This document shows positions 5,817 to 29,969 of a stretch of 32,000 nucleotides of DNA, piece by piece. The notes below the pieces were generated by a model. The model worked only from the letters and a program-made list of their open reading frames with translations, ran no database searches and was not told where the DNA came from. Source of the DNA: Candidatus Iainarchaeum sp. (GTDB taxonomy: Archaea; Iainarchaeota; Iainarchaeia; Iainarchaeales; DTGL01). The first letter of the stretch is position 1. Each line of letters starts with the position of its first letter. The position numbers were made by a program, and so were the translations under genes. The stretch is from assembly GCA_038886995.1 (NCBI GenBank), contig JAWALG010000001.1:14635-46634 (forward strand), given 5' to 3'.

Positions 5817-6215
5817 ATGGAGCTTCCCATCTCTGTAATGATAACAATTTTTGTAGCCCTTGCCGTAGGTGCTATGCTCTTAACATTAAGCCAAGGTTGG
5901 CTCTCAGGCCTAGAGCTTCCTTGGGTGCCCCAAAATAAAGGTGAAACTAAAATTATCCAGCAGATAAGCATAACAAACTCACAAATAGGCAAGCTTCTAA
6001 GGTCATGTTATGAAGAAATGAATCAAAAGCCAAAAATGGAATATTATACTTGTTATGCGATAACTGTTGAAAACCCAGTAACTGTGGATCCTGCTGAAGT
6101 TGCAAAGGAATTGCCTGGAATTGACACTAATAGCTACCACATAGACAGCGGCACTACAAGAAGCATAACAATATTTTGGAACTACCCAAGCAGTAAGGTG
6201 GAGGTGAGGGTATGA
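5817..6215 (+). CDS. pilin-like / N-terminally anchored small secreted protein (132 aa, 2 Cys)
   Basis: N-terminus MELPISVMITIFVALAVGAMLL is a hydrophobic helix with no canonical KG/A cleavage motif. It is the first gene of the plus-strand operon and overlaps the next gene as ATGA. Confidence 0.5.
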   Translation: MELPISVMITIFVALAVGAMLLTLSQGWLSGLELPWVPQNKGETKIIQQISITNSQIGKLLRSCYEEMNQKPKMEYYTCYAITVENPVTVDPAEVAKELPGIDTNSYHIDSGTTRSITIFWNYPSSKVEVRV

Positions 6216-6772: not shown

Positions 6773-6792
6773 AAAATCAGCGGTAGGGAAAA

Positions 6793-7203
6793 ATGGAGAA
6801 TGCTGTTTGGGTAGTTTTTGGAATAATAACGGTTTTCTTAGCCATGGGGATATTGCTTACGATGGTTGAAAACAATAGGGAACAAACCAAGATAAAGACC
6901 AACGAAAATGCAGTAAAGGCCTTTGCGCAATGGTGCAATTTTGTATGTGACTCAGAGGTTGAAACGCGCCTAGGCAAAGAAATTGAAATTTCATCAGGCG
7001 CAGTCATGAGTGGCCATGGCAAAGGGGTTTGCATTGACTACAAAAACAATAAAAATTGTGAATACTGCAAATGCGATGTGAACGCTATAGAACTAAACCT
7101 AAATGAACCAGATATAATAAAAGCATACGATACCCACGCTTTCAGGTGCATATTTGAAAAAACAGACATAGAGGTTGTGGCAATTGAATGCAGAGGTACC
7201 TAA
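6793..7203 (+). CDS. cysteine-rich pilin-like protein (136 aa, 8 Cys)
   Basis: N-terminus MENAVWVVFGIITVFLAMGILL is a hydrophobic helix. It has C-x3-C (WCNFVC) at aa 48-52 and a CEYCKC cluster. Confidence 0.55.
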   Translation: MENAVWVVFGIITVFLAMGILLTMVENNREQTKIKTNENAVKAFAQWCNFVCDSEVETRLGKEIEISSGAVMSGHGKGVCIDYKNNKNCEYCKCDVNAIELNLNEPDIIKAYDTHAFRCIFEKTDIEVVAIECRGT

Positions 7204-7207
7204 GCAA

Positions 7208-7588
7208 ATGCTTCAGAAAGGCAGCATTTCAATAAATGTAATGATTTACATAGGCGTTGCCCTTGCTTGTGGCATTGCTTTGTTTTGGTTTTTGCAGAAT
7301 TTCTTCAGCGCACAGATGCTTTTTGAGAAGATGGACAATGACTTAATGCATATGGCCTCAAGGATCAATGAAAACTGCGATTCTAACTATTTTTTATTTT
7401 ACCACAACCCAGTAATAGAAGAAGGTAAAATTGACTTCAACAAGGACTCTGCATGCATGGAAAATAGAAATGTAAGGCGATGTGTAAAGCTTCTCTGCGG
7501 CCCAGAGTTTTTGGTAAGCTTCAAGCTTGAGGACTTAAACATAATAATTTTTGAGAAAGCTCAGACCTTAACAATCTGGACGCAATAG
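7208..7588 (+). CDS. pilin-like protein (126 aa)
   Basis: ATG at 7208 sits just after the TAA of the previous gene at 7201-7203. MLQKG|SISINVMIYIGVALACGIALFWF is a class III-like leader. There are 4 extracytoplasmic Cys. Confidence 0.55.
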   Translation: MLQKGSISINVMIYIGVALACGIALFWFLQNFFSAQMLFEKMDNDLMHMASRINENCDSNYFLFYHNPVIEEGKIDFNKDSACMENRNVRRCVKLLCGPEFLVSFKLEDLNIIIFEKAQTLTIWTQ

Positions 7589-10955: not shown

Positions 10956-11492
10956 GTGGTGCCTAAATTTAAGCCAACTGGCTTCTTTTCATCAGCTTTG
11001 GTTGTTATTTTTACTGCTGCATTAATTTCTATAATCGCATCTTATGTTAGGGAGCTTGCATTATTGAGAGAAGCCCACATAACAGCCATTGAAATGGAAC
11101 AAGCCAGCTTTGCAAGGTTTCAGGTGGAGGAGAATATTTCAAAAGTAATAAAGGAAACATTAGAATCAGAGTTATCAAAAAACAACACTGACTCGGTTAT
11201 TCTTAACAGCATTGTTAGCAAAAAGGTTTCAGATGTCTATGAGAGATTCAAAAAGCATTTTGGATGCGAGTTATACATAACTGATGGCACTAGCAGATAC
11301 CCTTTCACAGGCCTCAACGAACTATCCAGAACCATTGTATTTGATTCAGATGGCCTTACCATAGCAGAATATACTTACACTGGCGGCGCCATGAAAAACA
11401 AAAGCGTTGTTTGCAAAATACAGAAAGGCAGTGCATATGCTTTTGCATCACTAGTTCCAGGGTACACTGTGAGGGCAACAAAAGTTGGTTAA
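10956..11492 (+). CDS. pilin-like protein B1 (178 aa)
   Basis: GTG start with GGGG about 8 nt upstream. The leader is MVPKFKPTG|FFSSALVVIFTAALISIIASYV, a G|F cleavage-type motif followed by a hydrophobic helix. Confidence 0.6.
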   Translation: MVPKFKPTGFFSSALVVIFTAALISIIASYVRELALLREAHITAIEMEQASFARFQVEENISKVIKETLESELSKNNTDSVILNSIVSKKVSDVYERFKKHFGCELYITDGTSRYPFTGLNELSRTIVFDSDGLTIAEYTYTGGAMKNKSVVCKIQKGSAYAFASLVPGYTVRATKVG

Positions 11493-11493
11493 G

Positions 11494-11865
11494 ATGCATA
11501 AGAACATAGCACTAAAAAATCAAAAGGGTGTCGCAGCACTTGAAATGTTGCTATGCATAATGCTGGTAATAGTACTGCTCTCAATTGCATTGGAAAGCAT
11601 TCAGAGTACTGGAAAAACTTCTTATGAAAAGCACAAAAGATTAGAGGCATATGCTAAAGCAAAAAGTTGCAGCACACTAGTGGATTCGCACTACACAAAC
11701 CCACAGGTAAGTGCTTCCTTGGGGATTGATTGTGCAATTTTTGAAGGGGCAGTTGGAAGCGATTACAATGGAAGCTTTGTGTATTCAGAGATATTCTCTG
11801 GTGCAACAATAGTCACGAAGAAGCAAGGTACCGAGGTAAAGGTTCATGGTACGCACTACAAGTAA
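11494..11865 (+). CDS. class III signal peptide pilin B2 (123 aa)
   Basis: ATG at 11494 sits right after the previous TAA. The leader is MHKNIALKNQKG|VAALEMLLCIMLVIVLL, with KG at -2/-1 and E at +5. Confidence 0.65.
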   Translation: MHKNIALKNQKGVAALEMLLCIMLVIVLLSIALESIQSTGKTSYEKHKRLEAYAKAKSCSTLVDSHYTNPQVSASLGIDCAIFEGAVGSDYNGSFVYSEIFSGATIVTKKQGTEVKVHGTHYK

Positions 11866-12307
11866 AAAAGGCATGTTCTTTGCCTTAGACCTCTGTACAG
11901 CGTTCATAATAATACTCCTTGTTTGTTTTCTATCATTTTTCGTTTTTGTAAGAGTATCACAGTTCAGGTTAATACGCAGCAACTTTTTCGAAAATGAGCA
12001 TAACGCACTTTTTGTGGATTCGCTTCTCAAAAGAAGCGTCGATGAGAATGGCTTTGCAGATGTAAGCTTTGATGAGCGGCGCGTTCTTGAGAATCGTGTA
12101 GCTGACTTTGAAGTGGCATTTGAGAAAAACAGGGAAAACCTCCTCAGGAACAAGGTTATTGCATTAAAGCTAAGCAGCAATGAGATTGTTTTGGATAAGG
12201 AAAAAATTTCTGAATGCAGAGACATGGCTATATTCAGGCGAGCATTTTTGCTCAAAGGAAAATTTAGCATTTTGGAGGTGGCCTTTTGCAATGACACAAA
12301 GCATTAA
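11846..12307 (+). CDS. pilin-like protein B3 (153 aa)
   Basis: The leader is MVRTTSKKG|MFFALDLCTAFIIILLVCFL, with GAGGT upstream. It overlaps the previous gene by 20 nt. Confidence 0.55.
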   Translation: MVRTTSKKGMFFALDLCTAFIIILLVCFLSFFVFVRVSQFRLIRSNFFENEHNALFVDSLLKRSVDENGFADVSFDERRVLENRVADFEVAFEKNRENLLRNKVIALKLSSNEIVLDKEKISECRDMAIFRRAFLLKGKFSILEVAFCNDTKH

Positions 12308-12659
12308 CGGCTTTGTATTCACAATGGAATCTTCTATTTCAGCAATGCTTTTCGCAGTAGTTGCGTTTTCTGCATTGAGCATATTTTATTTTAGCGAAGG
12401 TCCTAGAACAGAGGAGCTAATAATATTGCAAAAAGAGCACGACCTGTTGAAGATATGGCTTTTGCAAAGGCCTACTAAGGAAGAAATGGTAAATGATGCG
12501 AAACAGATATTCGGAGAAAGATTTTCACTAATCACAGATGGGATAAAAGTTTTTGATGGAAACAAAAGCAGAGGAAATTCAAATGCGATATCAAGCAAGC
12601 TTTTGGTTATAGACAAAAACCTAAAAGAAACGGAAATAATTCTTATAGCATATGATTGA
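12291..12659 (+). CDS. pilin-like protein B4 (122 aa)
   Basis: Internal ATG at 12291 with GGAGGTGG upstream. The leader is MTQSING|FVFTMESSISAMLFAVVAFSAL. It overlaps the previous gene by 17 nt. Confidence 0.6.
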   Translation: MTQSINGFVFTMESSISAMLFAVVAFSALSIFYFSEGPRTEELIILQKEHDLLKIWLLQRPTKEEMVNDAKQIFGERFSLITDGIKVFDGNKSRGNSNAISSKLLVIDKNLKETEIILIAYD

Positions 12660-12661
12660 GT

Positions 12662-13069
12662 TTAGCAGTTTTGCACCTTTAAAAAAATAGCATCTTTTTG
12701 GCGCTTAAGCAAAAAGCAAGAGGTTTTATTCAAAGAGAGGGTGCTATTTGAAGAGATTACTTTAAATGCAGTATCAACATTAATGTCAGAACCATTGACT
12801 GAAAGTGTTATAAGCCCAGGCCTTATTGAAAAGTTCCAATCTTGCAAGGGATTGCATCTAAGTTCAAGTTCAGAGCCCTCGGAAAGTTGTTCCATTAGCT
12901 TTATTGAGCTTTTAAGCTCTGAGGCAAAAAGCTTTGCATTTGCCAAATCAATTGCTTTAATGGATTTGCTATAGGCCCTACTGGCTGAAGGTAGAATAAG
13001 GCACATGGCAGCAATTGCCACGGCAAGCACTATCAAAAACTCCAAGGAAATTTGCGCTTTTTGGTTCAT
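12662..13069 (-). CDS. class III signal peptide pilin B5 (135 aa)
   Basis: The leader MNQKA|QISLEFLIVLAVAIAAM is the canonical archaeal Q-x-S-x-E-[FY]-L-I pattern. The protein ends in ...KVQNC. Confidence 0.75.
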   Translation of the reverse strand: MNQKAQISLEFLIVLAVAIAAMCLILPSASRAYSKSIKAIDLANAKLFASELKSSIKLMEQLSEGSELELRCNPLQDWNFSIRPGLITLSVNGSDINVDTAFKVISSNSTLSLNKTSCFLLKRQKDAIFLKVQNC

Positions 13070-16346: not shown

Positions 16347-16802
16347 TTAGCCGCATGTTCCGACTATTGGCTTTGCACCGACTAGCTTCTTATCATAGGT
16401 ACTGCCTTCAATTCTATACGTTATTATAAGAGGGTACTGATAGCCTGATCCTGCATTACACCCTAAACCTGAAAAAGTCAGTGATGAAAGAGTTTTTGAT
16501 TCACCTGCATTTAAAACCAGATCATTCGCTGATGCTACCTTGCCATTTAGGTTGATATCTATAACAGTTATTTTTTCAGTACCTACATTCTTAAGTGTAA
16601 AGTTGCCCGTATTACCACCGATCTGCCAGTCCGTTACTGCTATTGGTGAAGTTCCTTGCCAATAGGCCTTGCTCTGTTGTTCTGTTATGGCTCCGCCAAG
16701 GCCTGGGAACCAGCCCATCACTCCTGCAACAACAAGTGCAATTATTATTATTACAGCCAAAATAATCAAATACTCGGTTGTTCCTTGTCCTCTATTTTTC
16801 AT
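16347..16802 (-). CDS. class III signal peptide pilin, stand-alone candidate major pilin (151 aa)
   Basis: The leader MKNRGQG|TTEYLIILAVIIIIALVVAGV is the canonical archaeal prepilin N-terminus. A GGAGGT SD lies 7 nt upstream of the ATG at 16802. A beta-rich globular part carries a Cys pair (GLGCNAGS ... VGTCG at the C-terminus). Confidence 0.8.
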   Translation of the reverse strand: MKNRGQGTTEYLIILAVIIIIALVVAGVMGWFPGLGGAITEQQSKAYWQGTSPIAVTDWQIGGNTGNFTLKNVGTEKITVIDINLNGKVASANDLVLNAGESKTLSSLTFSGLGCNAGSGYQYPLIITYRIEGSTYDKKLVGAKPIVGTCG

Positions 16803-16955
16803 CACATTACCTCCTTACAGTATTGTTTAAGTAATATTTATTGATACACCGGAGTTTAAAATACTTACTTTTTGCCAAATTGGTTTAAATCAGGCCTTTA
16901 AACGCTTTGTTTTTATTGATAATCAGCAAAAATATAGGTAGCAACCGGTGTCCTT

Positions 16956-17762: not shown

Positions 17763-17813
17763 AAAGCTTAGATAAGATTATAAAGCAGTTTAAATAATAT
17801 ATTCTTGGTGAAT

Positions 17814-18134
17814 ATGATACTGCTGTATGCATTTGTGGTTCTTCTTTATATCTTGGCATTTGCCATAACACTTGCAATATGCAAAAAGCTATATGGCGGT
17901 GGCTTTTCAATGGCCTTGCCATACCTTATATCTGCAGTAGGCCTGTTCGCGGTTGTAAACATAATAAAGCTATTTGCAAGCGTCAATGGAGTTCCTTACA
18001 ACATAACTGATGCACCTGACCTTTGGGTCAGCATAGAGATAGTTTATATTCTTGCAGGCGTAATGTTTGTCTCAATGCTCTACCAGTTTTATCACACCAG
18101 CTATGTAACACGCGGCTGGGAGGAATGTAAATGA
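17814..18134 (+). CDS. small 3-TM membrane protein (106 aa)
   Basis: Three hydrophobic helices. I preferred the ATG at 17814 over the TTG at 17805, with TTTAAATAATATA upstream. It overlaps the next gene as ATGA. Confidence 0.5.
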   Translation: MILLYAFVVLLYILAFAITLAICKKLYGGGFSMALPYLISAVGLFAVVNIIKLFASVNGVPYNITDAPDLWVSIEIVYILAGVMFVSMLYQFYHTSYVTRGWEECK

Positions 18135-18445
18135 TTGAGCCAATGTTCTTTTCTCTAATAGCTGGCATAAAACTTGGAATTTTCCTAATAGCTTTTTTCC
18201 ACTCAATAATAGTTGCTAGGTTTGCGAAGCTAAAGGAGTTGGAACTTTTCATATCAGTGAGCTTAATCTATGTCTCAATTGCAGCAATAGAAGTTGTATA
18301 CATTTACCAGCATTTTGGAAAAATACCCAATGCAATTCCTGAGCAGTTTGTAATTTACAGCGGCCTTTTTCTTGACGCTATAGCAGCCATAGGCATAATA
18401 TGGACTCTCCTGTGGATAAACAGGGATATAAAGAAGTGGAAGTAA
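18131..18445 (+). CDS. small 3-TM membrane protein (104 aa), apparent paralog of the preceding gene
   Basis: It has the same TM1-basic loop-TM2-(G-x-P-x-N)-TM3 layout: VNGVPYNIT in the first protein versus FGKIPNAIP here. Confidence 0.5.
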   Translation: MIEPMFFSLIAGIKLGIFLIAFFHSIIVARFAKLKELELFISVSLIYVSIAAIEVVYIYQHFGKIPNAIPEQFVIYSGLFLDAIAAIGIIWTLLWINRDIKKWK

Positions 18446-18448: not shown

Positions 18449-19003
18449 GTGGTTTTGGTGGCAAAAAAGATCGACTTTGCTTCAATAGCCGAGGACCAAA
18501 TAACCCTTTTCATAGTGCCAGCCAAGGACTATGTTGAGGTTGACAATGAGCTTCTTCATTATTTCATAAATGTTAAGAAGATGGGCTGCATATATGTTGC
18601 TGCAAACAAACCGGCACAGCTTGTAAATAAAATACTAGAGAATGCAAAGGTAAACACTGAAAAGATATGGTACATTGATTGTGTCTCAGGAAGGGTTTCT
18701 TCGCCACACAGGATTGAAAAAGTTATTTTTCTTGAAACACCGAGGGACCTAACAAACATGAGCATTGCAATAACAAATTTTGTAAAGAACATGCCTGAAA
18801 AAAGCAAGATGCTTTTCATAGACAGCTTGACAACGCTAACAATCCATAACGACATAAACACTATTGCTAAGTTTACCCATTTCATAATAAACCAAGCAAG
18901 GAACTGGGGCGTATCAATGGCCCTGATATCAATTGAAGAAGAGGCAGAAGCAGAGCTTATAAACAAGATATCCATAATTGTGGATAAAGTTGTAAAGCTT
19001 TAA
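18449..19003 (+). CDS. RecA/KaiC-fold domain protein lacking a P-loop (DUF835-like, predicted inactive)
   Basis: MLFIDSLTTL resembles the KaiC-family Walker B strand (hhhhDS). The expected Walker A position reads LFIVPAKDYVEV, with no GxxGxGK[ST]. GTG start. It is the third gene of the membrane-protein operon. Confidence 0.5.
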   Translation: MVLVAKKIDFASIAEDQITLFIVPAKDYVEVDNELLHYFINVKKMGCIYVAANKPAQLVNKILENAKVNTEKIWYIDCVSGRVSSPHRIEKVIFLETPRDLTNMSIAITNFVKNMPEKSKMLFIDSLTTLTIHNDINTIAKFTHFIINQARNWGVSMALISIEEEAEAELINKISIIVDKVVKL

Positions 19004-20052
19004 TAAGATGCTAAAAGAATTCCTCTAAGGAAAATCCTCGCGAAGAAGAAAATCACTGCAGAAACGAGGAATATTGCTGGAAAATATTTAAGGCCGAATT
19101 TTGCTTTGCCTCTGGAGATTACTCCCATAAACGCGCTCGCAAATAGAGAATTTCCAAAAAGGAGCAAATATGCTGCAATGCTCATGAAAGCCGGGTCTAT
19201 GCTTATGCCCGAAGACAAGAAACCGAGGTTGAACGATCCGCTTGTGTCCCTTGCAATATCTGCTTGCATATTCGAAAGAAGCTCTAGGAAAATAACTGAA
19301 ACAGAAAGAAGCACCGGTGTCATTATTACAACAATGAAAAGAAGAAACATCTCATACATCTTGGTGCCTGATATTAGCGCTTTTTTAAGTTCTTGTGTTT
19401 GCCTCATGTCTTCTGCTGATGTCTCAAGAAGCTCAGCAATTTTGCCTCCAGCACGCATTGACTGTATCATGAAAGGCACCATTTGCTTAAGGTTTTCTGA
19501 GTCAATACTTTCAGAAAGGGCTTTAAGCGACTCTGTAAATGATTCTGTGCCAAGGGATTTTGATGTAGCAATCTTAATCTCCTCAGCCAAAGGACCAAAT
19601 TCTTCCCTTGCAGCGCTCCTGAAAGCAAAGAAAGGAACCATGCCTGCTCTTATGTTGTTTGAAACTAAAAGCATGAAATCGGGCAAAATCTTGTCAACGA
19701 GGTTTGCCCTTGAGTCAATCTTATAATAGAGCATAAGCTGGTATATAACTGCTATGACACAAAATGAAATTATGCCAACGAGGAGAGCAGTTAGGTAAAT
19801 AAGCCCGGTTGGAAACAATGATGAAAAAAGACCACTAAAAACAGTTAGGGGCAAAAGGAAAAACAAAATTGATAAAAGTATTGCAAGGAGAAGCTTTCGC
19901 CCAATATATAGATCAAAATCGCCTTTTATTCCGGCATAAGTTAGCATCTGGTACAAAACCCTTTGCCTTATTTTTGTGGGAACTGCTCTGCTTAGCCCTA
20001 AGCAAACCCTTCTATAGAAGCGTTCAATTGACTTGGAAAGACTCCCGTTCAA
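19000..20052 (-). CDS. T4F platform protein, TadC/FlaJ C-half-like (350 aa)
   Basis: A cytoplasmic helical T2SS-F-like segment (LPDFMLLVSNNIRAGMVPFFAFRSAA...SLKALSESIDSENLKQM...MRAGGKIAELLE) is flanked by TM helices. It overlaps the upstream gene by 4 nt. Confidence 0.75.
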   Translation of the reverse strand: MNGSLSKSIERFYRRVCLGLSRAVPTKIRQRVLYQMLTYAGIKGDFDLYIGRKLLLAILLSILFFLLPLTVFSGLFSSLFPTGLIYLTALLVGIISFCVIAVIYQLMLYYKIDSRANLVDKILPDFMLLVSNNIRAGMVPFFAFRSAAREEFGPLAEEIKIATSKSLGTESFTESLKALSESIDSENLKQMVPFMIQSMRAGGKIAELLETSAEDMRQTQELKKALISGTKMYEMFLLFIVVIMTPVLLSVSVIFLELLSNMQADIARDTSGSFNLGFLSSGISIDPAFMSIAAYLLLFGNSLFASAFMGVISRGKAKFGLKYFPAIFLVSAVIFFFARIFLRGILLASY

Positions 20053-20939
20053 GTCAAAAACACCTTCGGAACTCGGCTTTTAACAAAGCCGATTATTGAT
20101 AGCTGTATTGCAAATGAAAGCACTACTATAAATAAAATTGTTGCAGGACCTATTGATGCACCTGCAAGTGAAGAAAGTATGACGATAAATGTAATGCCTA
20201 AGCTTGGTATGGCTGCTGCAAAAAGCATATACATCAAAACCCACACATTGAGTTCTGCGGAATAATCCCTTATAGCCCTTTCTTGCTCTTTCACAAGCAT
20301 TGCTACAATTGACTGCAAAGCACCTTTAACAGAGGCACCGCTTCTTATGGCGCTCAGCAACTGCCAGCAGGTCTTTTTTAGATGCTCAGAGCTTGTCTTT
20401 ATTGCCATCTTTTCAAGGGCTTTTGCTTCTGATTCGCCAGCATTTATCTCCTTTACAACATACTCAAATTCTTCCGAAACACCAGCATAGCCTGACTTAG
20501 CAACATAAACTAAGGTATTGTAGAGGCTTATGCCAGAGCAAACCTGGACATACATTGATTTTACCGCAAAGAGGAGGTTATTATCTATGGTCCTTGCTCG
20601 GTTATTCGCTATTATGCGCGGATAAAAAACATGCAACAGAAAGAACACAACGCCAAATATTAGACCAAAGAAAAGTGCACTAACAAGTACTGAAGCATCA
20701 AATTGCAGGGATCTTAAAAATAAAAGCGTAGCAAACAAGGCAAAAAAAAGCGCAAAGTATGCAAGCGCTGAAAAAAAAGCAGCAGTAAGGTATTTTTCTG
20801 GGTCAATTTTTATGCCAGCTAGGTGCAAATCATATTTAAGCGGATAGAATAAGTCACTCAGCTTTTCACCAATCCAAAGAAAACGCCTATTGATCCTGTT
20901 TGCGCGTTCAATTGAGAAAAGCATGAACTTTACGCGCAT
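20049..20939 (-). CDS. T4F platform protein, TadB/FlaJ N-half-like (296 aa)
   Basis: The T2SS-F-like segment is IDNNLLFAVKSMYVQVCSGISLYNTLVYVAKSGYAGVSEEFEYVVKEINAGESEAKALEKMA...LLSAIRSGASVKGAL, flanked by TM helices. Confidence 0.75.
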   Translation of the reverse strand: MRVKFMLFSIERANRINRRFLWIGEKLSDLFYPLKYDLHLAGIKIDPEKYLTAAFFSALAYFALFFALFATLLFLRSLQFDASVLVSALFFGLIFGVVFFLLHVFYPRIIANNRARTIDNNLLFAVKSMYVQVCSGISLYNTLVYVAKSGYAGVSEEFEYVVKEINAGESEAKALEKMAIKTSSEHLKKTCWQLLSAIRSGASVKGALQSIVAMLVKEQERAIRDYSAELNVWVLMYMLFAAAIPSLGITFIVILSSLAGASIGPATILFIVVLSFAIQLSIIGFVKSRVPKVFLT

Positions 20940-20940: not shown

Positions 20941-22848
20941 TTATGCCTCCAAAAACATTGCTGGCTTTTTATTCTGCTTTGCTGCCTCTAAAACCTCATC
21001 TGGATTGGCGTAAAATGCCTTCATTATGCTGCCAACCTGGTTTATATCGCTTACGTTGTTGTTAAGCATCCACTCTATGATGTGGGCCCTACCATCAAGG
21101 TCTTCGGCAATTTCCTGTTCAGTGAGGCCTGTGTGCAGATTAATGTTCCCAACAAGCTTAGTTGGCTTGTTGAGCATATCCCACTTATCAGTCCTTGGAG
21201 ACCATTTGAATACAGTGTTTATTCGCAACTGTGCTCCTGTTGTTCCTGTCTCAATCTCGCAGATTTCATAGCTACGCCTTCTGTTCGTTTTCCTATCCCT
21301 GTACTGCACTAGTATGAGATCAAGACCTTCAACCTCTAGCGGAGGCAATGATATTGGTGGCTCCAGCAGGCGTCTTAAAACCTGTTGGCCTGAGTTTGCG
21401 TGCAGCGTACTGTATACGCTGTGGCCTGTGTGCAACGCTTCAAACAATACCTCTGCTTCTTTCTTCTTTCTTATCTCACCAAGGATTATTCTGTCAGGCC
21501 TCATCCTAAGTGAAGCATGCATAAGGTCAAGCATTTTAACCTCGCCAAGGCCTTCAGGGTTTGGGTTCCTTGTTGTCATTGGCACCCAGTTCCACTGAAG
21601 GTGGCTTGGAAGCATTATTTCGCGCACATCTTCTATTGAAATGATTCTGTGGTAGGGTGGCATGAAAACGCACAAGGCATTTAGCATTGCGGTTTTTCCT
21701 GAAGCCGTGCCGCCTGCAACAAGCATGCTCATTTCGTATTGCATTGCAAGCCAGAGCAAAGAGGCCATCTCTATGCTAAGCGTATGCCTTACGCCAATTA
21801 AATCAACAATTGTCCAAGGCCTTCTTGCAAAGCGCCTTATTGTTAAGGTGTTTCCAAAGGAAGATATTGGGAATAGAGAGGCATGGACCCTGTCGCCAGT
21901 AATTATGTGGGCATCGAGCAGCGGATTGAGCGTTGTTATCTCTCTGCCAACTTTCCTTGCAATTTGTGAAGCATAGTTTGCTATTGCATCCTCAGAAAGA
22001 GGCATTATATTTGTTCTCATCCAGCCGTATTCCTTGTGGTAAACAGTAATGTGCGTTTTAGAGGAATTTATTGCTACTTCTTCAAGGTCATTATCACCCA
22101 TTATTAGTTCAATTATGCCAAGGCCATACATTTCATGTAGAAGCAGCCCTGCAAGGATATCCTGAAGTTTAGGGTCTGAGCCGAAATACTCCTGAAGGAC
22201 CTTTTTGGCCTCATCAAAGTATCTTCTCTTGAGCTCTTGGCTTTTCTTAGTATCGGTTATTTCTGAAACCTCAACAGGCACGTGCTCAACAATTTTGTTC
22301 TTTATTTCATCAAGGAATATTTTAGTATAAGGCCTAAAGGTTGGCGGAATCAGGTTGTAGTAAAGCATTCGGTCCTCTGTGGAGCGAACAATTTCAACAC
22401 GCACTGGCACATTATCAACTGAATGTTTTTTTTGCTCAACTTTCTTGCCATCAAAAACAAAGAGTTTTGGTTCTGTAATAAGGGTAAGAAGCACGACCCT
22501 CGGGCGCTTGATGACTGTTGTGGGGTAAACAAGCTTTACAACGCTTGACATCTCAAGGATCCTGCCTATGTTTTCTACGGCATCTATGCTGAGACCAAGC
22601 TTGCTAGCGAGCTCATTCAAGGACGCGCTTTTCTTCACCTTGAGTATATCTACTAGAGAGTCAACTGGCGTAGTTATTGGGTCTCTTAAGTCGTCATAGT
22701 CATTTTGCTTTTTCTCTTTTTCTTCAGTTTGGTGCTTTGGGCTATAATAATGCTCTTCTTCCGCATTTGGTTCTTCCTTAGGCCTAAGTGGAAGAACAAT
22801 ACTTTGGCCTTCTTCTGAAGCTTTTACTATTTTGCTCTTTTTCTTCAC
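20941..22848 (-). CDS. type IV filament assembly ATPase (FlaI/ArlI/TadA-like) with an N-terminal charged region plus a wHTH-like domain
   Basis: Walker A is VAGGTASGKTAMLNAL, followed by IISIEDVREI. Walker B is RPDRIILGEIRKKKEAE and the His box is GHSVYSTLHAN. GTG start with AAGGTG 7 nt upstream. The N-terminal 120 aa are extra. Confidence 0.9.
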   Translation of the reverse strand: MKKKSKIVKASEEGQSIVLPLRPKEEPNAEEEHYYSPKHQTEEKEKKQNDYDDLRDPITTPVDSLVDILKVKKSASLNELASKLGLSIDAVENIGRILEMSSVVKLVYPTTVIKRPRVVLLTLITEPKLFVFDGKKVEQKKHSVDNVPVRVEIVRSTEDRMLYYNLIPPTFRPYTKIFLDEIKNKIVEHVPVEVSEITDTKKSQELKRRYFDEAKKVLQEYFGSDPKLQDILAGLLLHEMYGLGIIELIMGDNDLEEVAINSSKTHITVYHKEYGWMRTNIMPLSEDAIANYASQIARKVGREITTLNPLLDAHIITGDRVHASLFPISSFGNTLTIRRFARRPWTIVDLIGVRHTLSIEMASLLWLAMQYEMSMLVAGGTASGKTAMLNALCVFMPPYHRIISIEDVREIMLPSHLQWNWVPMTTRNPNPEGLGEVKMLDLMHASLRMRPDRIILGEIRKKKEAEVLFEALHTGHSVYSTLHANSGQQVLRRLLEPPISLPPLEVEGLDLILVQYRDRKTNRRRSYEICEIETGTTGAQLRINTVFKWSPRTDKWDMLNKPTKLVGNINLHTGLTEQEIAEDLDGRAHIIEWMLNNNVSDINQVGSIMKAFYANPDEVLEAAKQNKKPAMFLEA

Positions 22849-22892: not shown

Positions 22893-23738
22893 TTATCCGC
22901 TGAAAAGCGTAACTTCAGAAGACCATTTCGAGTTGCCCATAGCAATGTTGAGATCGCAAGGCCAATATATTCTGACTGGGTTTGTGGCTTTTATAGAAGC
23001 ACTAAGGTTTAAGTCCAAATTCCTTTCAGATAAGTTGTTTTGGACTCTTATTGCACCAGTCCCCCCAGCAATGCTTCCGAAAGAAACATTAATGTCTCCG
23101 CTTAAATCCTTGAATTTTATAATGTATTCTTTGTCATCAGAATTTGATGCATTGCAAACAGTTTCAAGAGGAAGTCCGCTGGCATCTCTCAACCTCAAAA
23201 TAATCTTTGTAGTGCCCAGGTCACAGCTCCACTCAATCGAATTTTCATCATCATAATAACCACCAGAGAAATAAAGATTTATGTCATAAGAGTAAGCTTC
23301 AGTATCAGATGATGGGGCATAAAATAGAACATAGTTTTCATCAATGCTGCGCACGTATCTGATTCCATTTGAAAATTGTAGCTCAGTGGAAGGAGTTAAG
23401 TTGCACATGGAAATTTTAACATTTCTCTTTTCGGAGTATGGCCCTTCAATGAATCCCTTCCAGGAGCTTATATTGCTGTGTGAGGTCTTTATTGGAATTG
23501 AATCTTGTATTTTTATCTCATAAGAGTTTGCAGAGCTTTCAGCAGATATTCTAAAGCCAAAGACGCTTTTTGTGTCTTCAGCAATATCTGAAGCAATGTC
23601 AGAAACCTTTAATGCAGATGTGCTCTCTAAAATAAGCTTTTGTTCTGCCTGGTTTGACCTTAAATAATATACTGATGCGATTAGAAGCACTGAAAGCAGT
23701 ATTGCAACTGAAATCGTAACAACAAAGCCCTTTTTCAA
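22893..23738 (-). CDS. pilin-like protein C1 (281 aa)
   Basis: The leader is MKKG|FVVTISVAILLSVLLIASVYY. A large beta-rich body follows, with 4 Cys. Confidence 0.6.
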   Translation of the reverse strand: MKKGFVVTISVAILLSVLLIASVYYLRSNQAEQKLILESTSALKVSDIASDIAEDTKSVFGFRISAESSANSYEIKIQDSIPIKTSHSNISSWKGFIEGPYSEKRNVKISMCNLTPSTELQFSNGIRYVRSIDENYVLFYAPSSDTEAYSYDINLYFSGGYYDDENSIEWSCDLGTTKIILRLRDASGLPLETVCNASNSDDKEYIIKFKDLSGDINVSFGSIAGGTGAIRVQNNLSERNLDLNLSASIKATNPVRIYWPCDLNIAMGNSKWSSEVTLFSG

Positions 23739-23744
23739 AAAAAA

Positions 23745-24158
23745 TCACCTGTACCAGGCAAGTACCTCTGCAAGGTATGCCTTTCCTGTTTTATTGGAGA
23801 AGAAGCTCCTCTTGTATGAGGCCCTCTCAGTATACTTTGAAATGCAGCCAACCTTGTATGTGCTAAAAAGCACACCGTTGATGTCTTCAGAGCTATAAAT
23901 CCTGATTTCAAGGCAAAGCCTCCGCGGAGAAACATTAATTATTGTACTAAGCTCAGTCATTTCATTTTCATCAATTGCTCTTTCGAAATAGCCGCCTTTT
24001 TCAAGAGCTGCCCCTATGTCGGAAGCGAAGTCGTAAAGTGCAGCGCTTTGGAAAGCGCTGAAGCTTATGCCTGAGAAATAAAATGTAACTATGCCGAGAA
24101 GAATCATTAGGACAGTAAGAGAGAACAATGCGTCCATTGAAAGTACAAAGCCCTTCAC
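23745..24158 (-). CDS. pilin-like protein C2 (137 aa)
   Basis: The leader is MKG|FVLSMDALFSLTVLMILLGIV. It shares an ATGA overlap with the upstream gene. Confidence 0.6.
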   Translation of the reverse strand: MKGFVLSMDALFSLTVLMILLGIVTFYFSGISFSAFQSAALYDFASDIGAALEKGGYFERAIDENEMTELSTIINVSPRRLCLEIRIYSSEDINGVLFSTYKVGCISKYTERASYKRSFFSNKTGKAYLAEVLAWYR

Positions 24159-24676
24159 TCAAAAACCCCCACATCCACAAAGACAACAGCATTGTTCAAA
24201 AGGCCTGCCCTACTGACCTTTGCAATCGCGGATTCCTGCGTTTCTGAAGCACCAATAGAATAAAGAGTGCTGCCTGAAGTATCAGTAACCTTAAGCACAA
24301 TATCGTATTTTTGCAATCCGAGAATTTCTTTTAGAAAAGCATAATTCTCATCAGCAAGCTTTTCAAAGCGTTTTATTTTTTCTTCTGATAGGACGTTCGG
24401 TTCTAAAGCTAGGCCTATTGCCTTGATGTTTTCATCTGGTAGTGTGTGCCAATTACTTGGAATTCCTTCGGAGACAACAAGCATTTGCGCTGTTCGCCTT
24501 GCAGCATATTCTCTGTCTTGAATTAGTTGGGCTTCATTGATGCGCATAGAAGCCAAGTTTGAATAACCGTAAACAATTACAAGCGCTGCCACAAACATTG
24601 CGGAAGCGAAGATAAAGTCGCTAGTGAAAAGCTGGCCTTTTTCACTGTGCGGCGGCAATTGAAATTCCTCCGCCAC
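24155..24676 (-). CDS. pilin-like protein C3 (173 aa)
   Basis: The leader is MAEEFQLPPHSEKG|QLFTSDFIFASAMFVAALVIV. Its start lies 35 nt inside the upstream gene. Confidence 0.6.
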   Translation of the reverse strand: MAEEFQLPPHSEKGQLFTSDFIFASAMFVAALVIVYGYSNLASMRINEAQLIQDREYAARRTAQMLVVSEGIPSNWHTLPDENIKAIGLALEPNVLSEEKIKRFEKLADENYAFLKEILGLQKYDIVLKVTDTSGSTLYSIGASETQESAIAKVSRAGLLNNAVVFVDVGVFE

Positions 24677-25034
24677 TGTTTTTTATGAGTAGCTCTTTGC
24701 CCTGTACTGCTTGCGGTGCGTTAACATCCGGCGCAATTATAAATTCACTTACATACTGGCCTTGCCATTCAACGAAAACCCTGTTCTTAGCAAAAGATAT
24801 GTTGTAGTCGCCAAAACTCCTGAGAAAAAGTGATTTTTCCGTGCCATTGCCGCCAAGATAAACTGCATTTATTTCAGATGCAAGTGTCCTTGCAAGAAGC
24901 TTTGCTTCCTGGGTCTTTTTAGATTGCATAAAAACATCGTGCTGGCCTGATGCAACCGAAAGCGAAAAAACAAAAATCAATAAAAAAAAGGAAAGAAGAA
25001 CCATAAATTCAACAGACGCCTGAGCTTTTTGCAA
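24642..25034 (-). CDS. class III signal peptide pilin C4 (130 aa)
   Basis: TTG start with AAGGTGA 4-5 nt upstream. The leader is (M)QKA|QASVEFMVLLSFFLLIF. Confidence 0.7.
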   Translation of the reverse strand: MQKAQASVEFMVLLSFFLLIFVFSLSVASGQHDVFMQSKKTQEAKLLARTLASEINAVYLGGNGTEKSLFLRSFGDYNISFAKNRVFVEWQGQYVSEFIIAPDVNAPQAVQGKELLIKNSGGGISIAAAQ

Positions 25035-25055: not shown

Positions 25056-27233
25056 TCAGCCACATTTGTAGTCGATAGGCCATGGTGGCGTTGTCAATAT
25101 GCTCCCATCCGAAAACATAAAGTGAATTGTAAACACGTCGTTTGAATTTATAGTGCCATCAAAAGTGATTTTTGATGTTTGAGACCTTATGACTTCTCCA
25201 GACTCTATTACAAATCCACCCCCATCTTTTATTGGGAACCACGCTCCAGGTGGTGCTTTGCCATTTTTCAAAACACCATTCTCATCAAAGTACTTTTTAC
25301 CGTCATATATCGTTACTTGGTTTTTTATAAAAAAACTCACAGATGCTACTTTAGCATTACTGTTAAAATCTACTTTCATTCTTATTAGATTTAGATCTAC
25401 TGGATAACTGTTCCAAAAAGTCCACCATTCGAGACCGCCACTGCTGCTTATACAAGCTGGCGACCATGAGAAGTTTAACATGTCAGCGTATGTTGCAATC
25501 TTTATGCTCAAATTAGAGTCATCAATGTTTGCATTGCTCTGGCCTGTGATATTAGCATTAAATTGGCCCGTTGCATTTTTGTTTGCGTCAACCCTGACTG
25601 TTATAAGATTGCAGTCGCCACCTTGCAAAACACCTAAGCTTGAAGGTTCTAATGAAATGGAGATCAAATTGTTTGGATCATTAAATACTTGGTAGGAAAA
25701 GTTTGCATACTGAAGCGGACTGAAGCCGGTGTTGCAAGCAAAAATCTCAAGCTCTTGCGCGGAATCTGGAAGCATAGTGAATATTGTAACCTGCTGCCTT
25801 TCTGGGAAAAGCGATAGGAAGCCGTTTTTGTCTGGCAGTGACAGAGTCCTTATTGAAATCCTTGATGTGTCAGAGTTTATGCTGCTTAGGCCTTCGATAA
25901 GGCCATTGTAGTCGCCATTTGCATCTTGTGGTACGCTTATTGTTATTTTTACAGGTTCACAGGCTCCTCTCTGAAGAGGCGCAATGTTTGTTGGGCTTAT
26001 TGAAACCCAGTCATTTGCGTCGCGCTCCATTGAGCGCAAAAGGTTAACATCATCAAGGTCTTTAAGCCCTAAGTTGCAAGCATAGATATTGACATCCTCA
26101 GTAGAGCCCTTAAATATTGAAAGTGGATAATAGTCCGGGAAAAGGTACAGTTCGCCATCTTCTTCTGGTAAGGTAAGAACCTTTATAATAAGCACAGATG
26201 AGTCACTGTTAACACTGCTATTGCCATAAACTGTGCCAGTATAAATGCCATTTGCATCATTTGGAACAGCCATGGTTACTTTAACAGGCATACAACTTTC
26301 TCTCACCAGGGGGGTAATATTTGAGGGGCTAAGTGATATCCAACTGTTTGCGTTGCGGTCCATTGAAATGGAAAGGGTCACACTATTTAGGTCTTCCATG
26401 CCAACATTACATGCGTAAAAATTGATGTCTTGCGTAGAGCCAGCCAATATTGATATAGGGTATTGTTCAGGGTAAAGTTCAAGCCAAGCTTTCTTTATTA
26501 TTGTAGCGGAAACTTCTATTGTTACAGGCACAAATATCTCGTGTGTTTGGTTTGGGGTTATTGCAGTAAAAACTAATGATCCGGGATAAGCGCCTGCTGC
26601 AAACGCATCCGAATAGAAGTTTATGTCAAGTGTCTTTGAGCTACCTGGCTCAAGTTCAAAAGATGAGGTGTTTATATCAAAGTTTGCGTGCGTATGGCTC
26701 CAATTCTTAACTAAAGAAACCTGCGCTTTGCCATCGCCATCATTGTATATTGTGATTGTTTCCTGCTTGTCGCCACCTCTGGAAATATGCACAAAAAGTG
26801 ATGTCTTGTCAAGGTAGATTTCCTCAAGGCCGAAAACAACATAGCCCTCCTTTGCCTCAACCCATACGCGGTGCTCTCCTGGCTTCAGAGGTATTGTGCC
26901 TACTAAGTTAGCATCTCCTTTGGCATAGATATCACTGCCGGCAACATTGAACACTATGCTTGTACCTTCAATGCCGCTTTTGCTTGGGTCAATTGCGCTT
27001 GGCACTGAAAAGAAAACCCTTTTTCGTGCACCTTCGCCTTGCCTATAAACATCATTTGCCGCGTTTATAAGGTCATTGACACTTGTAAGCGCAATCTGCT
27101 GTTGTCTCTCGAGCTGAATCTCGGATAATGAAGTGTTAGAGTATGCAATTATGGCTATAAGAATAACAAGGCCAACTGCAAGGATAACCATAACCTCAAC
27201 TGAGCTTTGGCCTTTTGAACTTTTTGAAAACAT
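25056..27233 (-). CDS. giant class III signal peptide pilin-adhesin (725 aa) with tandem beta-sandwich repeats
   Basis: I preferred the ATG at 27233 over the GTG at 27242. The leader is MFSKSSKG|QSSVEVMVILAVGLVILIAIIAY. After it come one related domain, three about 111-aa repeats and a distinct 143-aa C-terminal domain ending ...IDYKCG. Confidence 0.8.
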   Translation of the reverse strand: MFSKSSKGQSSVEVMVILAVGLVILIAIIAYSNTSLSEIQLERQQQIALTSVNDLINAANDVYRQGEGARKRVFFSVPSAIDPSKSGIEGTSIVFNVAGSDIYAKGDANLVGTIPLKPGEHRVWVEAKEGYVVFGLEEIYLDKTSLFVHISRGGDKQETITIYNDGDGKAQVSLVKNWSHTHANFDINTSSFELEPGSSKTLDINFYSDAFAAGAYPGSLVFTAITPNQTHEIFVPVTIEVSATIIKKAWLELYPEQYPISILAGSTQDINFYACNVGMEDLNSVTLSISMDRNANSWISLSPSNITPLVRESCMPVKVTMAVPNDANGIYTGTVYGNSSVNSDSSVLIIKVLTLPEEDGELYLFPDYYPLSIFKGSTEDVNIYACNLGLKDLDDVNLLRSMERDANDWVSISPTNIAPLQRGACEPVKITISVPQDANGDYNGLIEGLSSINSDTSRISIRTLSLPDKNGFLSLFPERQQVTIFTMLPDSAQELEIFACNTGFSPLQYANFSYQVFNDPNNLISISLEPSSLGVLQGGDCNLITVRVDANKNATGQFNANITGQSNANIDDSNLSIKIATYADMLNFSWSPACISSSGGLEWWTFWNSYPVDLNLIRMKVDFNSNAKVASVSFFIKNQVTIYDGKKYFDENGVLKNGKAPPGAWFPIKDGGGFVIESGEVIRSQTSKITFDGTINSNDVFTIHFMFSDGSILTTPPWPIDYKCG
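25488..26483 (-). repeat. three intragenic tandem repeats of about 333 nt (111 aa each) within the giant pilin
   Basis: Positions use track-ORF numbering. They are aa 254-364 (LELYPEQYPISILAGSTQDINFYACNVG...), 365-475 (LYLFPDYYPLSIFKGSTEDVNIYACNLG...) and 476-585 (LSLFPERQQVTIF...EIFACNTG...). Repeats 1 and 2 share 60 of 111 identical positions in my hand alignment. Confidence 0.85.
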
Positions 27234-27297: not shown

Positions 27298-28248
27298 TTA
27301 GAAAATCTCAACATCTGGGTAGACCTTTATTCCGTTTGCTTCAAAGTCCAATGCAAGAACCTTATTTGTGTGCCTTGTGCCGCGCATCTTCAATATTTCG
27401 CAACAATGAACTCTAGGCCCTTTTTCGCCTTCTTTTCTGTAATACAAAGCAATAATTGCATCTGAAAGGAAGCCAAGCGAATCTGCCTTTGTCAGATGCG
27501 TGTCAGCAGGTGTTTCAGAAATTACAATGGTTGTGGTCCCCCATTTATGCAACAGATCAAAAAATTCAAGTATGCTTTGCCTTTTCACATATTCATCATG
27601 GAACAAAAGCGCATATGAAGTTATTGAATCAACAACAAGGCGTTTGGCACCAATTTCATTTATTGCATCCTTTATTGGGCCACCACCCTCCTTCATCAGT
27701 TTTTCAACCTGGTGCGGCCTATACTCCAAAACTCTCAAAAGATTCTTCTGCTCCAAAGCCCTAAAATCCCAACCAAAAACAAGCGCATGCCTATAAAGTG
27801 ACTCCTTGTCTTCTTCAAAGGTTATGTAAATGCCTGGCTCTTTGCTTACAGTAATGCCATAGTACAAAAACTGAAGTGCAAATATTGTCTTGCCTGTGCC
27901 TGGCGCACCAACAAAAAGCACTACTGAACCTTTTTCAAAGCCACCCTCAATTAGCTCATCAAATGACTCAACACCCGTGGAAACCCTTTCTATAACTTTT
28001 TGCGCTGGCTTATTCTCTGGAATTTTTATTTCACCTAACTGCTGTGCGCTCTTGCCTAATATAACATTATCAAACTTTCGTGCTTGCTGAACCTGCTGTG
28101 CTGCTTCCTGCTTGGCCTCTTTTTTTGCAAGGTCTTCTGGCTTTATCTCTTGAAGCATCTCTTCCTTTTTTGAGCCCTCTTGCTTGTGTTCAGCACCAAA
28201 GGATTGAAATATTTTGCCAATGCCTTCTTTCTCTTGTTTTTCTGGCAT
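27298..28248 (-). CDS. single-domain KaiC/RadA-like (COG0467-type, ArlH/FlaH-like) ATPase with a disordered K/E/Q-rich N-terminal extension
   Basis: RVSTGVESFDELIEGGFEKGSVVLFVGAPGTGKTIFALQFLYYG contains the Walker A. Walker B is RLVVDSITS, followed by TTIVISE. A GGTG SD lies 6 nt upstream. It is the first gene of the locus C operon. Confidence 0.8.
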   Translation of the reverse strand: MPEKQEKEGIGKIFQSFGAEHKQEGSKKEEMLQEIKPEDLAKKEAKQEAAQQVQQARKFDNVILGKSAQQLGEIKIPENKPAQKVIERVSTGVESFDELIEGGFEKGSVVLFVGAPGTGKTIFALQFLYYGITVSKEPGIYITFEEDKESLYRHALVFGWDFRALEQKNLLRVLEYRPHQVEKLMKEGGGPIKDAINEIGAKRLVVDSITSYALLFHDEYVKRQSILEFFDLLHKWGTTTIVISETPADTHLTKADSLGFLSDAIIALYYRKEGEKGPRVHCCEILKMRGTRHTNKVLALDFEANGIKVYPDVEIF

Positions 28249-29129: not shown

Positions 29130-29969
29130 TTAGCAGTTATTCAAGTCGCTATATAGTTGTTTTATCTCATTGAGCAGAGAAACCACGCTTGAATGTAAAT
29201 CGTAAAGACCCCCAGTGTCTGTGCCAAGGGATTCTAGTTCATCTATTAGCTTTTCAGATTCTGAAACAAGTGATTCCGCACCTTTTATTTTATCATAAAG
29301 GTCAGCCATGTTATTGCAATCTATTCTTTCAAAATCAATACCCTGAAAAAAGGCCTTTGATTTTTGGTAAAGAAGGCATGCTTCACCAATTACTGCCCTG
29401 GCCTTTGCTTTATTTGCCAATATACTAAAGCCGGTTTCATCCAAAAGCAATGAGTTGACATTGAACTCTTTTGCTTTTTCAGGATACTTCAAAGAAAAAG
29501 ATTTGATGCTGCTGTTGTTCTTCGCAGCTTCTTCCTTGAGAATTTTGAGTTTATCCGCAAGACCTGAAAATGATTTAAAGTAAGTGCATTCTGTAGGAGA
29601 TGCTTTACTTATCTCGATAGAAACACTCTGTTTGAGCATCACAGAGTTGTTTGAGCTAAAGATATCTATCTTTTTAATCAAAAATTCTGCAAAGTTGAAA
29701 TGCAGTGACCAATATTCTTTCATCATGCCAGAGCTTTTATCACGTAAGGATTCGGCCTTTTTCAAAACAGATTTAACCTCTAAGAGAATTTTTTCTTTTG
29801 CCATGTTATTAATGTCAATTTCATGTGGACTCTTGAGTTTTTCCAAATCAACGCCTTGCCAAATGTCTGCTGGCTTGTCTTCAGTTTGGACACAGCCAGC
29901 GATAAAAAAAGAAAACAACAAAAGCATTAGGAGTATAAAAGTGGATTTATGCCTAAAGCGAAAGCTCAT
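29130..29969 (-). CDS. putative lipoprotein, all-helical (279 aa)
   Basis: The signal peptide carries a lipobox: MSFRFRHKSTFILLMLLLFSFFIAG|C. Its ATG overlaps the topA stop as ATGA (29966-29969). The protein ends in ...DLNNC. Confidence 0.55.
   Translation of the reverse strand: MSFRFRHKSTFILLMLLLFSFFIAGCVQTEDKPADIWQGVDLEKLKSPHEIDINNMAKEKILLEVKSVLKKAESLRDKSSGMMKEYWSLHFNFAEFLIKKIDIFSSNNSVMLKQSVSIEISKASPTECTYFKSFSGLADKLKILKEEAAKNNSSIKSFSLKYPEKAKEFNVNSLLLDETGFSILANKAKARAVIGEACLLYQKSKAFFQGIDFERIDCNNMADLYDKIKGAESLVSESEKLIDELESLGTDTGGLYDLHSSVVSLLNEIKQLYSDLNNC

Follow-up and report, generated by a model that had tools for sequence, protein, structure and literature searches.

Bacterial modular pilins such as PilB of Streptococcus sanguinis, as well as CofB and TcpB, are tip-located adhesins or adapters of type IV filaments (TFF) (Raynaud et al. 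2021, PMC8179133). In archaea, adhesin-like proteins rich in immunoglobulin-like (Ig) domains recur in TFF loci (PMC4858521; 10.64898/2026.04.22.720090), and pili-like appendages that link ultrasmall cells to their hosts have been seen at the contact sites (PMC7906910). How DPANN archaea recognise or hold hosts or surfaces is largely unknown, and no adhesin has been identified. Here we analyse a 32,000-nucleotide stretch (in the following, the window) of contig JAWALG010000001.1, positions 14,635 to 46,634, from a metagenome-assembled genome (MAG) of Candidatus Iainarchaeum (Diapherotrites, DPANN; GCA_038886995.1), and within it the gene for a 725-aa protein, for which an earlier note, made from the letters alone, had proposed a class III signal peptide, a stalk of β-sandwich modules and a terminal binding domain presented at a pilus tip. 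We regard it as highly probable that this surface protein is modular, pilin-like and part of a TFF system. Moreover, we moderately favour its reading as a type IV pilin of modular build, which would most plausibly sit at the tip in low abundance and present a four-domain Ig stalk and a terminal β-sandwich for attachment; its tip location and adhesin function we infer.

The likeness to PilB and PilC of S. sanguinis, which carry a vWA and a lectin module, respectively, lies in the architecture: In both cases a pilin carrier precedes non-pilin effector modules, the bacterial proteins being minor subunits that are thought to reside at the tip and whose architectures vary across relatives, and the vWA module of PilB is echoed in one relative of the 725-aa protein. 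The latter differs by its class III signal of archaeal type, which has Gln+1 and lacks the N-methyl-Phe motif, by up to five tandem β-modules, and by a family core in which the pilin module is followed by two Ig domains; no homology to PilB or PilC was detected at the sequence level. CofB of enterotoxigenic Escherichia coli and TcpB of Vibrio cholerae, both from type IVb systems and proposed as tip adapters or adhesins, share with it the order of pilin module, β-repeat and terminal β-sandwich. For these bacterial proteins trimerisation and assembly initiation were shown by experiment, whereas the 725-aa protein is known from sequence and models, and Foldseek searches returned no sequence or fold match between them. 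By analogy of architecture, bacterial modular pilins, especially CofB and TcpB, are probably the closest functional analogues. A further comparison concerns the PilY1/PilC-type, DUF2341-type and Ig-rich TFF adhesins (arCOG03508, arCOG05616, arCOG07037; PMC4858521; 10.64898/2026.04.22.720090), which likewise are large, multi-domain, secreted proteins encoded with pilus genes and predicted to act in adhesion at the pilus. These proteins are not pilins or are not so described, whereas the 725-aa protein joins its adhesin-like array and a pilin module in one polypeptide; neither DUF2341 nor a PilY1 β-propeller was matched in the 725-aa protein by Pfam or NCBIfam.

The gene lies on the minus strand, which the earlier note did not give, at the coordinates named there (Table 1). 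An in-frame GTG at 27242 would extend the product by three residues; the ATG start is favoured, as the identical NCBI protein and the annotated or close homologues agree on it. This identical protein, from a Candidatus Diapherotrites MAG, carries a hypothetical annotation. The N-terminus reads MFSKSSKG/QSSVEVMVILAVGLVILIAIIAY (here and below, a slash marks a junction): The leader is short and basic, ends in [KR][GA] and is followed by QSSVE and by about 20 hydrophobic residues at the extreme N-terminus, which corresponds to a class III leader, and the 19-residue Kyte–Doolittle mean peaks there at 3.07 (residue 12), the most hydrophobic stretch of the protein. AlphaFold2 (AF2) modelling with an alignment of five sequences places a long helix at residues 11–65, after which four to five strands follow (70–77, 109–112, 119–128 and 131–136, all of low confidence), the predicted local distance difference test (pLDDT) score being below 50 at residues 80–119. 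Residues 66–142, which had been labelled a linker domain, instead constitute the globular portion of the pilin module, which is conserved, as they contain invariant residues and align with a small pilin of the same locus. Specifically, a profile of residues 1–145 matched that of the 152-aa pilin of the locus in hhalign (probability 83%, E=8.5e-6, 85 columns), and the match runs past the helix to residue 113. The top three profile matches in the PDB, among them Thermus PilA5 and PAK pilin, are type IV pilins aligned on the α1-helix; they are not significant (E 0.4–0.9). With 11 N-x-S/T sequons, i.e., 1.5 per 100 aa compared with 0–0.4 in cytoplasmic neighbours, the predicted sequence fits an extracellular glycoprotein.

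The pilin module is the shared element of a large family. An exhaustive HMMER search yielded 979 representative clusters at E<=1e-3 (127 at E<=1e-30), nearly all of which cover only profile positions ~6–354, corresponding to the pilin module, module 0 and the first repeat (r1); a scan of the genome collection with a narrow alignment retrieved only close Iainarchaeum relatives, and more distant members belong to Candidatus Micrarchaeota. Word-indexed searches with the C-terminal and the N-terminal profile yielded hardly any match and are given no weight here. In an alignment of 44 sequences Q9 (Gln+1), E13 (Glu+5), G66, P78, G112, G119 and G218 are invariant, as is G68 of the pilin module across the family, and the motif [KR][GAS]/Q[ASGTE][SAGT]xE with a hydrophobic stretch at the extreme N-terminus occurs in 103 of the 158 retrieved family sequences; Pfam Class_IIIsignal was matched at E<=1e-3 by six of the 44 relatives (best E=2.6e-7). 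Together with the hhalign result and the operon described below, these invariant positions bear out the proposed pilin-like, class-III-type N-terminus fused to an Ig-like stalk. Beyond the core the family diversifies: The proteins are 88 to 1820 aa long, many matches falling at 345–365 aa, and the distal Pfam domains comprise MG2, NEW3, vWA, RTX, CARDB, Big_7, PKD, DUF11 and LamG. All members inspected are annotated as hypothetical or are named after one incidental domain. In one remote locus (L011, 14517-15587) two family paralogues stand in tandem, a 1446-aa LamG-containing protein and a 356-aa protein (RA/QSSLETLL), the latter consisting of the pilin-Ig-Ig core alone.

In the 725-aa protein, domains assigned to PF22544 and PF10633 come after the pilin module, as in a modular pilin. 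Module 0 matches the Pfam HYDIN/VesB/CFA65-like Ig family PF22544 (residues 149–211, E=2.8e-9, with a score of 37.5 bits where the cutoff is 25.5), and three repeats of 111 aa follow (r1–r3, aa 251-583, nt 25485-26483). Our realignment of r1 and r2 gave the same 60 identities in 111 positions as had been counted by hand (z=58 against shuffles), while r1 and r3 share 34 and r2 and r3 share 35 identities (z=21–27); indeed, all features that the earlier note had listed, including the class-III-type N-terminus, the single module ahead of the repeats, the repeats, their Cys pairs and the C-terminal domain ending in KCG, were reproduced. The spacing of the Cys pairs is 39, 39 and 41 residues in r1, r2 and r3, and this conserved pair is a family-specific feature in comparison with NEW3 (PF10633), CARDB (PF07705) and ASH/HYDIN (PF22544). 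The suggested resemblance to CARDB/NEW3-type domains holds in part: NEW3/NPCBM_assoc was reached marginally and by r2 only (residues 375–443, 25.7 bits against 24.4 in the whole-protein scan; 20.1 bits when r2 was scanned alone, with none for r1 and r3), whereas CARDB gave no match at E<=1 in any segment of the 725-aa protein and was matched in one of 44 relatives (6.3e-7). Scanned singly, r1 and r3 showed no significant Pfam match. The AF2 model contains β-structure throughout after the helix, with pLDDT 80–86 in the repeats, and a Foldseek search of the PDB with the whole model returned proteins in which ASH, MG or Ig domains are arrayed (HYDIN, CFAP proteins, complement, α2-macroglobulin, PrgB, cadherins, SbsB), which indicates that the modelled stalk is of a generic Ig type.

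A collapsed repeat or another assembly artefact can be excluded as the origin of the array: at the DNA level r1 and r2 share just 63% identity, Tandem Repeats Finder detected no array in the repeat region, an independent Logan assembly (SRR27730019) holds a 100% identical gene, and homologues in three other samples contain the same three repeats without gaps. The repeats are thus real, which settles a concern that the earlier note had itself raised.

The C-terminal module follows r3 and is bracketed by a fourth Cys pair (Cys594/Cys724). When its 141 C-terminal residues were modelled separately by AF2 with eight homologues, an all-β fold of 13 strands was obtained (pLDDT 89.4, pTM 0.85). No Pfam match was found for it in the 725-aa protein or in seven relatives, a PDB sequence-profile search with the module gave nothing, and Foldseek searches of the PDB and BFVD returned nothing at E<=1e-3. 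The module is characterised by the signature F.FSW...W[TS]..N...I..M.V.W...FxFSDGS, and its profile matches 38 of 167 family proteins, usually at residues ~350–475 straight after r1; it is terminal in members of 474–481 aa, internal in members of 600–1532 aa, and in tandem duplicate in four proteins, with other domains often coming after it. Its description as a distinct C-terminal domain has to be revised in that it is a recurrent module of the family and not a one-off binding head. Since r2 and r3 are inserted between r1 and this module and nothing comes after, it is the terminal element of the 725-aa protein.

Two possible relationships of the module were rejected. A viral receptor-binding relative was not retrieved from BFVD at E<=1e-3, and the idea that the module duplicates the globular head of the small pilin is unsupported (hhalign probability ~1%, E=0.056). 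The latter idea had been prompted by the Cys-Gly at the end of both proteins and by a BLASTP match of 'VDFNSNAKVAS' to 'IDINLNGKVAS' (E=0.009); the Foldseek similarity to an archaeal pilus subunit and to FlaF/FlaG (TM-score ~0.5) is no better than that to other Ig-like sandwiches. Separately, we note that the 152-aa pilin ends in ...GTCG and the 725-aa protein in ...YKCG (nt 25059-25064), each with an upstream Cys able to close a C-terminal disulfide loop reminiscent of the bacterial pilin D-region; the terminal Cys-Gly is retained in the related loci L002, L003 and L004 and absent from more distant relatives. The orthologous gene of a further locus (L009, 6004-8376), which is interrupted by a stretch of masked or unknown bases (X), encodes two tandem FSW/FSDGS modules and then a domain of ~200 aa in common with L010.

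The distal parts of the gene have a history of their own. We compared the window gene domain by domain with three related loci, using DNA identity and the proportions of synonymous (pS) and non-synonymous (pN) differences. The background genes of L002 show ~80% protein identity to those of the window with saturated synonymous sites (pS ~0.75), and the DNA identity of the two modular genes is 69–80% over aa 1–117 and 86–89% over aa 118–237. Over aa 238–567, in contrast, it rises to 94–100% (pS 0.11–0.22), and from about aa 568 it falls sharply to 47–59%, the C-terminal module showing pS 0.68 and pN 0.34; in the nucleotide alignment the switch lies at ...GCAAACAT/TGATGAC. A scan of metagenomes with a DNA pattern from just upstream of this breakpoint found no match, and a protein-pattern scan found two distant relatives only. 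Compared with L003, the closest genome (background pS 0.20–0.28), the pilin module is at background divergence (pS 0.23–0.25), which rises along the stalk to pS 0.53 in r3, and the terminal module is saturated (pS 0.71, pN 0.34, about 41–48% aa identity, an 18-residue indel). L002 and L003, in turn, are nearly identical to each other in the terminal module (pS 0.08, pN 0.01) and diverge over the rest of the gene (pS 0.34–0.65). The 94–100% identity to L002 (window 25533-26520) indicates that a tract of about 1 kb within the gene was exchanged horizontally in the recent past. From these domain-wise patterns it follows that stalk and terminal cassette moved independently between lineages. Moreover, the assembly GCA_026413945.1 breaks exactly at the boundary between r3 and the C-terminal module inside the orthologous gene (end of the L006 contig, where protein P0004 ends ...IATYAD; start of the L004 contig, where P0158 begins), which suggests co-existing alleles or strain heterogeneity in that sample. 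The strain-level variation that had been expected of an adhesin is thus present in the form of recombinational allele swapping, which would be consistent with a role in recognition, whereas no dN/dS above 1 was measured.

The 725-aa gene is the first gene of a tightly packed, same-strand TFF operon. Downstream follow genes for four small pilin-like proteins of 130 aa (KA/QASVEF), 173 aa (KG/QLFTSDF), 137 aa (KG/FVLSMD) and 281 aa (KG/FVVTIS), an ATPase of the FlaI family and a platform protein split into two genes, while the canonical small pilin of 152 aa is encoded beyond the platform genes; the latter matches Pfam Class_IIIsignal with E=7.5e-5 and 23.0 bits, slightly under the 23.7-bit cutoff, and its gene adjoins the locus in L001, L002, L004 and L011. 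Gene order and N-terminal motif types are kept in relatives at 80% (L002, L003, L004) and 37% identity (L001) as well as in the remote L011, whose 1446-aa LamG-containing relative lies on a 985-kb contig, and the linkage to T2SSE and two T2SSF genes is kept in all five. A split platform is known both from System 1 (Epd-like; methanogens, DPANN) and from the DPANN subsystem 4A in the classifications of Makarova 2016 and Sivabalasarma & Albers 2026 (10.64898/2026.04.22.720090), and the window operon matches System 1 and subsystem 4A alike by its split platform and single FlaI-family ATPase. It further resembles System 1, the Epd-type pilus of Methanococcus maripaludis, and subsystem 4A in its numerous pilin-like genes, its adhesin-like component and a candidate major pilin encoded on its own outside the operon, systems of this kind having been reported in DPANN (10.64898/2026.04.22.720090). 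Unlike System 1, the window locus is without a dedicated EpdA/EppA-type peptidase, and a KaiC-like gene is tightly linked to it.

Given this machinery, the 725-aa protein might use its class III signal and the TFF apparatus only for display, in a short pseudopilus, a bindosome-like membrane-proximal assembly or as an envelope or S-layer component, so that no long pilus would be formed. A 2026 survey argues that many class III signal peptide proteins lend functions to TFF machineries and that proteins rich in Ig domains may serve to prime the cell wall (10.64898/2026.04.22.720090); an envelope or S-layer component would help a filament to pass the cell wall, and a bindosome has been proposed in Sulfolobus. 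The operon ATPase also matches the bindosome protein BasE (7.7e-42), and the full-model fold search had returned the S-layer protein SbsB along with Ig arrays. We nevertheless consider mere display unlikely: The ATPase matches FlaI far better than BasE, Pfam scans found no substrate-binding-protein domain in the 725-aa protein, and the canonical small pilin and four minor-pilin-like genes in every locus fit a true filament.

The position of the gene at the head of the operon, together with the retained Glu+5 and the full pilin module, would also suit a major or co-major subunit, each copy of which would bear an Ig stalk, resulting in a thick, bottle-brush-like filament; the absence in archaea of an outer-membrane secretin that limits subunit bulk, an argument made for monoderms (PMC8179133), points the same way. 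This arrangement appears improbable to us, as the 152-aa pilin with its far more conserved N-terminus is linked to all loci, lengths from 88 to 1820 aa and unrelated distal domains are hard to square with a single helical packing, and a model of PilB gives steric clashes when packed in the filament body (PMC8179133). A low-abundance placement at the tip is preferred because an appendage of 660 aa would be hard to accommodate on each subunit and the separate 152-aa pilin could serve as the major one.

Several observations weigh against a tip-located, adhesive pilin. In bacteria the loss of Glu5 marks the tip-most minor pilin, as in GspK and PilX, which are without Glu+5. Glu+5 is kept in the 725-aa, 130-aa and 152-aa proteins, whereas three of the four small pilin-like proteins (22893-24676, minus strand) lack it and have Asp at +6/+7 or no acidic residue, a pattern that is the same in L001, L002 and L011. 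Moreover, the C-terminal module shows no recognisable binding fold or ligand site, its best structural neighbours being generic Ig-like sandwiches (TM-score ~0.5), and its internal position in many relatives means that it may be structural and not an effector. Positive selection is not demonstrated: pN/pS is about 0.2–0.5 in the variable parts, and the synonymous sites of the terminal module are saturated; a ratio below 1 implies that alleles are exchanged among old, functional variants. The head of the pilin module is badly modelled, as seen from its low pLDDT. Finally, PF04021 Class_IIIsignal aligns with residues 6–31 as expected and stays below the gathering score (12 bits against 23.7, E=0.21), and a Peptidase_A24 gene was found neither among the window open reading frames (ORFs) scanned nor in the fetched related loci. 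These last two points, the missed threshold and the lack of a prepilin peptidase gene nearby, would equally suit an uncleaved signal-anchor, which would make the protein a common surface adhesin with a type II membrane anchor, linked to pilus genes only genomically. Such an anchor is very improbable, however, in view of the Gln+1, Glu+5 and [KR][GA] junction that are invariant in about 100 relatives, which would not be expected for a plain anchor, of the homology that the profiles show to a genuine class III pilin, and of the strictly conserved operon membership.

For a modular tip pilin, the following course of events can be proposed: The hydrophobic helix would insert the precursor into the membrane, a prepilin peptidase that is not encoded in the window would remove MFSKSSKG, and the ATPase and platform would extract the mature protein and build it into the filament via its α1-helix. 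Present in few copies, it would enter along with the four small pilin-like proteins and most probably occupy the tip, where the Ig stalk, roughly 15–20 nm long if extended, would keep the terminal module off the filament and in contact with a surface or host cell. Stalk and terminal cassette would be swapped independently among co-occurring lineages, the pattern expected of a surface-recognition determinant under changing selection. As a tentative and rather doubtful extension, DPANN archaea (Iainarchaeota, Micrarchaeota and others) may share one conserved pilus operon whose first gene is a cassette-type modular tip pilin, in which a fixed pilin-Ig-Ig carrier is combined with distal modules that can be freely exchanged; horizontal swaps of stalk and terminal module between co-occurring lineages would then set the range of host cells or surfaces open to each episymbiont. 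If true, this pilin would determine host range much as phage receptor-binding proteins do.

Modular pilins and TFF-linked adhesins are known in outline, while a DPANN family with a fixed pilin-Ig-Ig carrier, an unclassified β-sandwich, a conserved operon and cassette exchange appears to be undescribed. The 725-aa gene and its family of about 1000 clusters provide a concrete candidate adhesin, with a conserved carrier, variable presented modules and a conserved assembly operon, and would extend to an archaeal family a principle, that of the modular pilin, for which the examples documented to date are bacterial. The recombination mosaic implies that the distal parts evolve as exchangeable cassettes and thereby points to residues for binding specificity. 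Additionally, two unclassified domains are defined for domain databases, namely the pilin head and the FSW...WTI.N...FSDGS β-sandwich module.

Table 1. Positions in the window of the gene for the 725-aa protein, of its predicted modules and of neighbouring filament genes.
Feature	Position	Strand	Basis or remark
Full coding sequence of the 725-aa putative modular pilin	25056..27233	-	ATG start; stop codon 25056-25058; ORF list
Predicted class III signal peptide, aa 1-8, MFSKSSKG	27210..27233	-	Cleavage expected after Gly8
Mature α1-helix, aa 9-65, first ~22 residues hydrophobic	27039..27209	-	AF2 helix 11-65; Kyte–Doolittle 3.07
Globular β part of pilin module, aa 66-142	26808..27038	-	Family-invariant residues; AF2 strands; hhalign
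Ig-like module 0, aa 143-250, ASH/HYDIN-type	26484..26807	-	Pfam PF22544; AF2 β-sandwich, pLDDT about 70-80
Repeat r1, aa 251-361, Cys275/Cys314, family-conserved core	26151..26483	-	Self-alignment; C275 nearly invariant in family
Repeat r2, aa 362-472, Cys386/Cys425, NEW3-like, lineage-specific stalk extension	25818..26150	-	Pfam NPCBM_assoc; relatives at 37-43% identity without r2
Repeat r3, aa 473-583, Cys500/Cys541, lineage-specific stalk extension	25485..25817	-	Self-alignment z=21-27; weak PF22544, E=6.5e-3
Approximate recombination breakpoint, about aa 568-570, last strand of r3	25527..25532	-	DNA identity to L002 changes from 100% to 59%
C-terminal β-sandwich module, 142 aa (584-725), Cys594/Cys724, ends KCG	25059..25484	-	AF2; recurrent unclassified family module
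Four downstream pilin-like genes, candidate minor-pilin set	22893..25034	-	Translations; same N-terminal motif types in L001, L002, L011
FlaI/PilB-type ATPase	20941-22848	-	Pfam T2SSE 3.9e-32; NCBIfam FlaI 1.9e-79
Split platform protein, two genes	20049-20939 and 19000-20052	-	Pfam T2SSF 9e-14 and 5e-13; UpsF and ArlJ matches
KaiC-like ATPase, 64 bp upstream of the 725-aa gene	27298..28248	-	Pfam KaiC 3.5e-56; synteny in L001, L002, L003, L011
152-aa canonical small pilin, candidate major pilin, RG/QGTTEYLIILAV...	16347..16805	-	~2 kb beyond platform genes

Further genes of the window deserve mention. Directly after the platform genes and on the opposite strand (18449-19003 and 17805-18445, plus strand), a short KaiC-related protein, which matches Pfam DUF7504 (7.7e-7) and KaiC (2.4e-5), and two small multi-transmembrane proteins are encoded, all of them kept in L002 and L004. 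On the other side of the 725-aa gene, a 279-aa protein (29130-29969, minus strand) has a lipoprotein-like N-terminus (…LLLFSFFIAGC/VQ) and no Pfam match; its identity to the L002 counterpart is 39%, compared with ~80% for neighbouring housekeeping genes, and thus it is another fast-evolving surface protein. A second TFF locus at 362-7588 comprises a FlaI/TadA-like ATPase (2798-4462, minus strand; Pfam T2SSE 4.3e-16, NCBIfam FlaI 1e-32), a 630-aa multi-transmembrane protein (882-2774, minus strand) that has no Pfam match and may be the platform protein, and, on the plus strand (5817-7588), four small ORFs whose products have a hydrophobic segment at the N-terminus and numerous cysteines. A third group at 10956-13069 consists of small ORFs with pilin-like N-termini, none of them with a Pfam match, examples being MNQKA/QISLEFLIVLAV (12662-13069, minus strand), NQKG/VAALEMLL (11485-11865, plus strand) and KKG/MFFALDL (11846-12307, plus strand).

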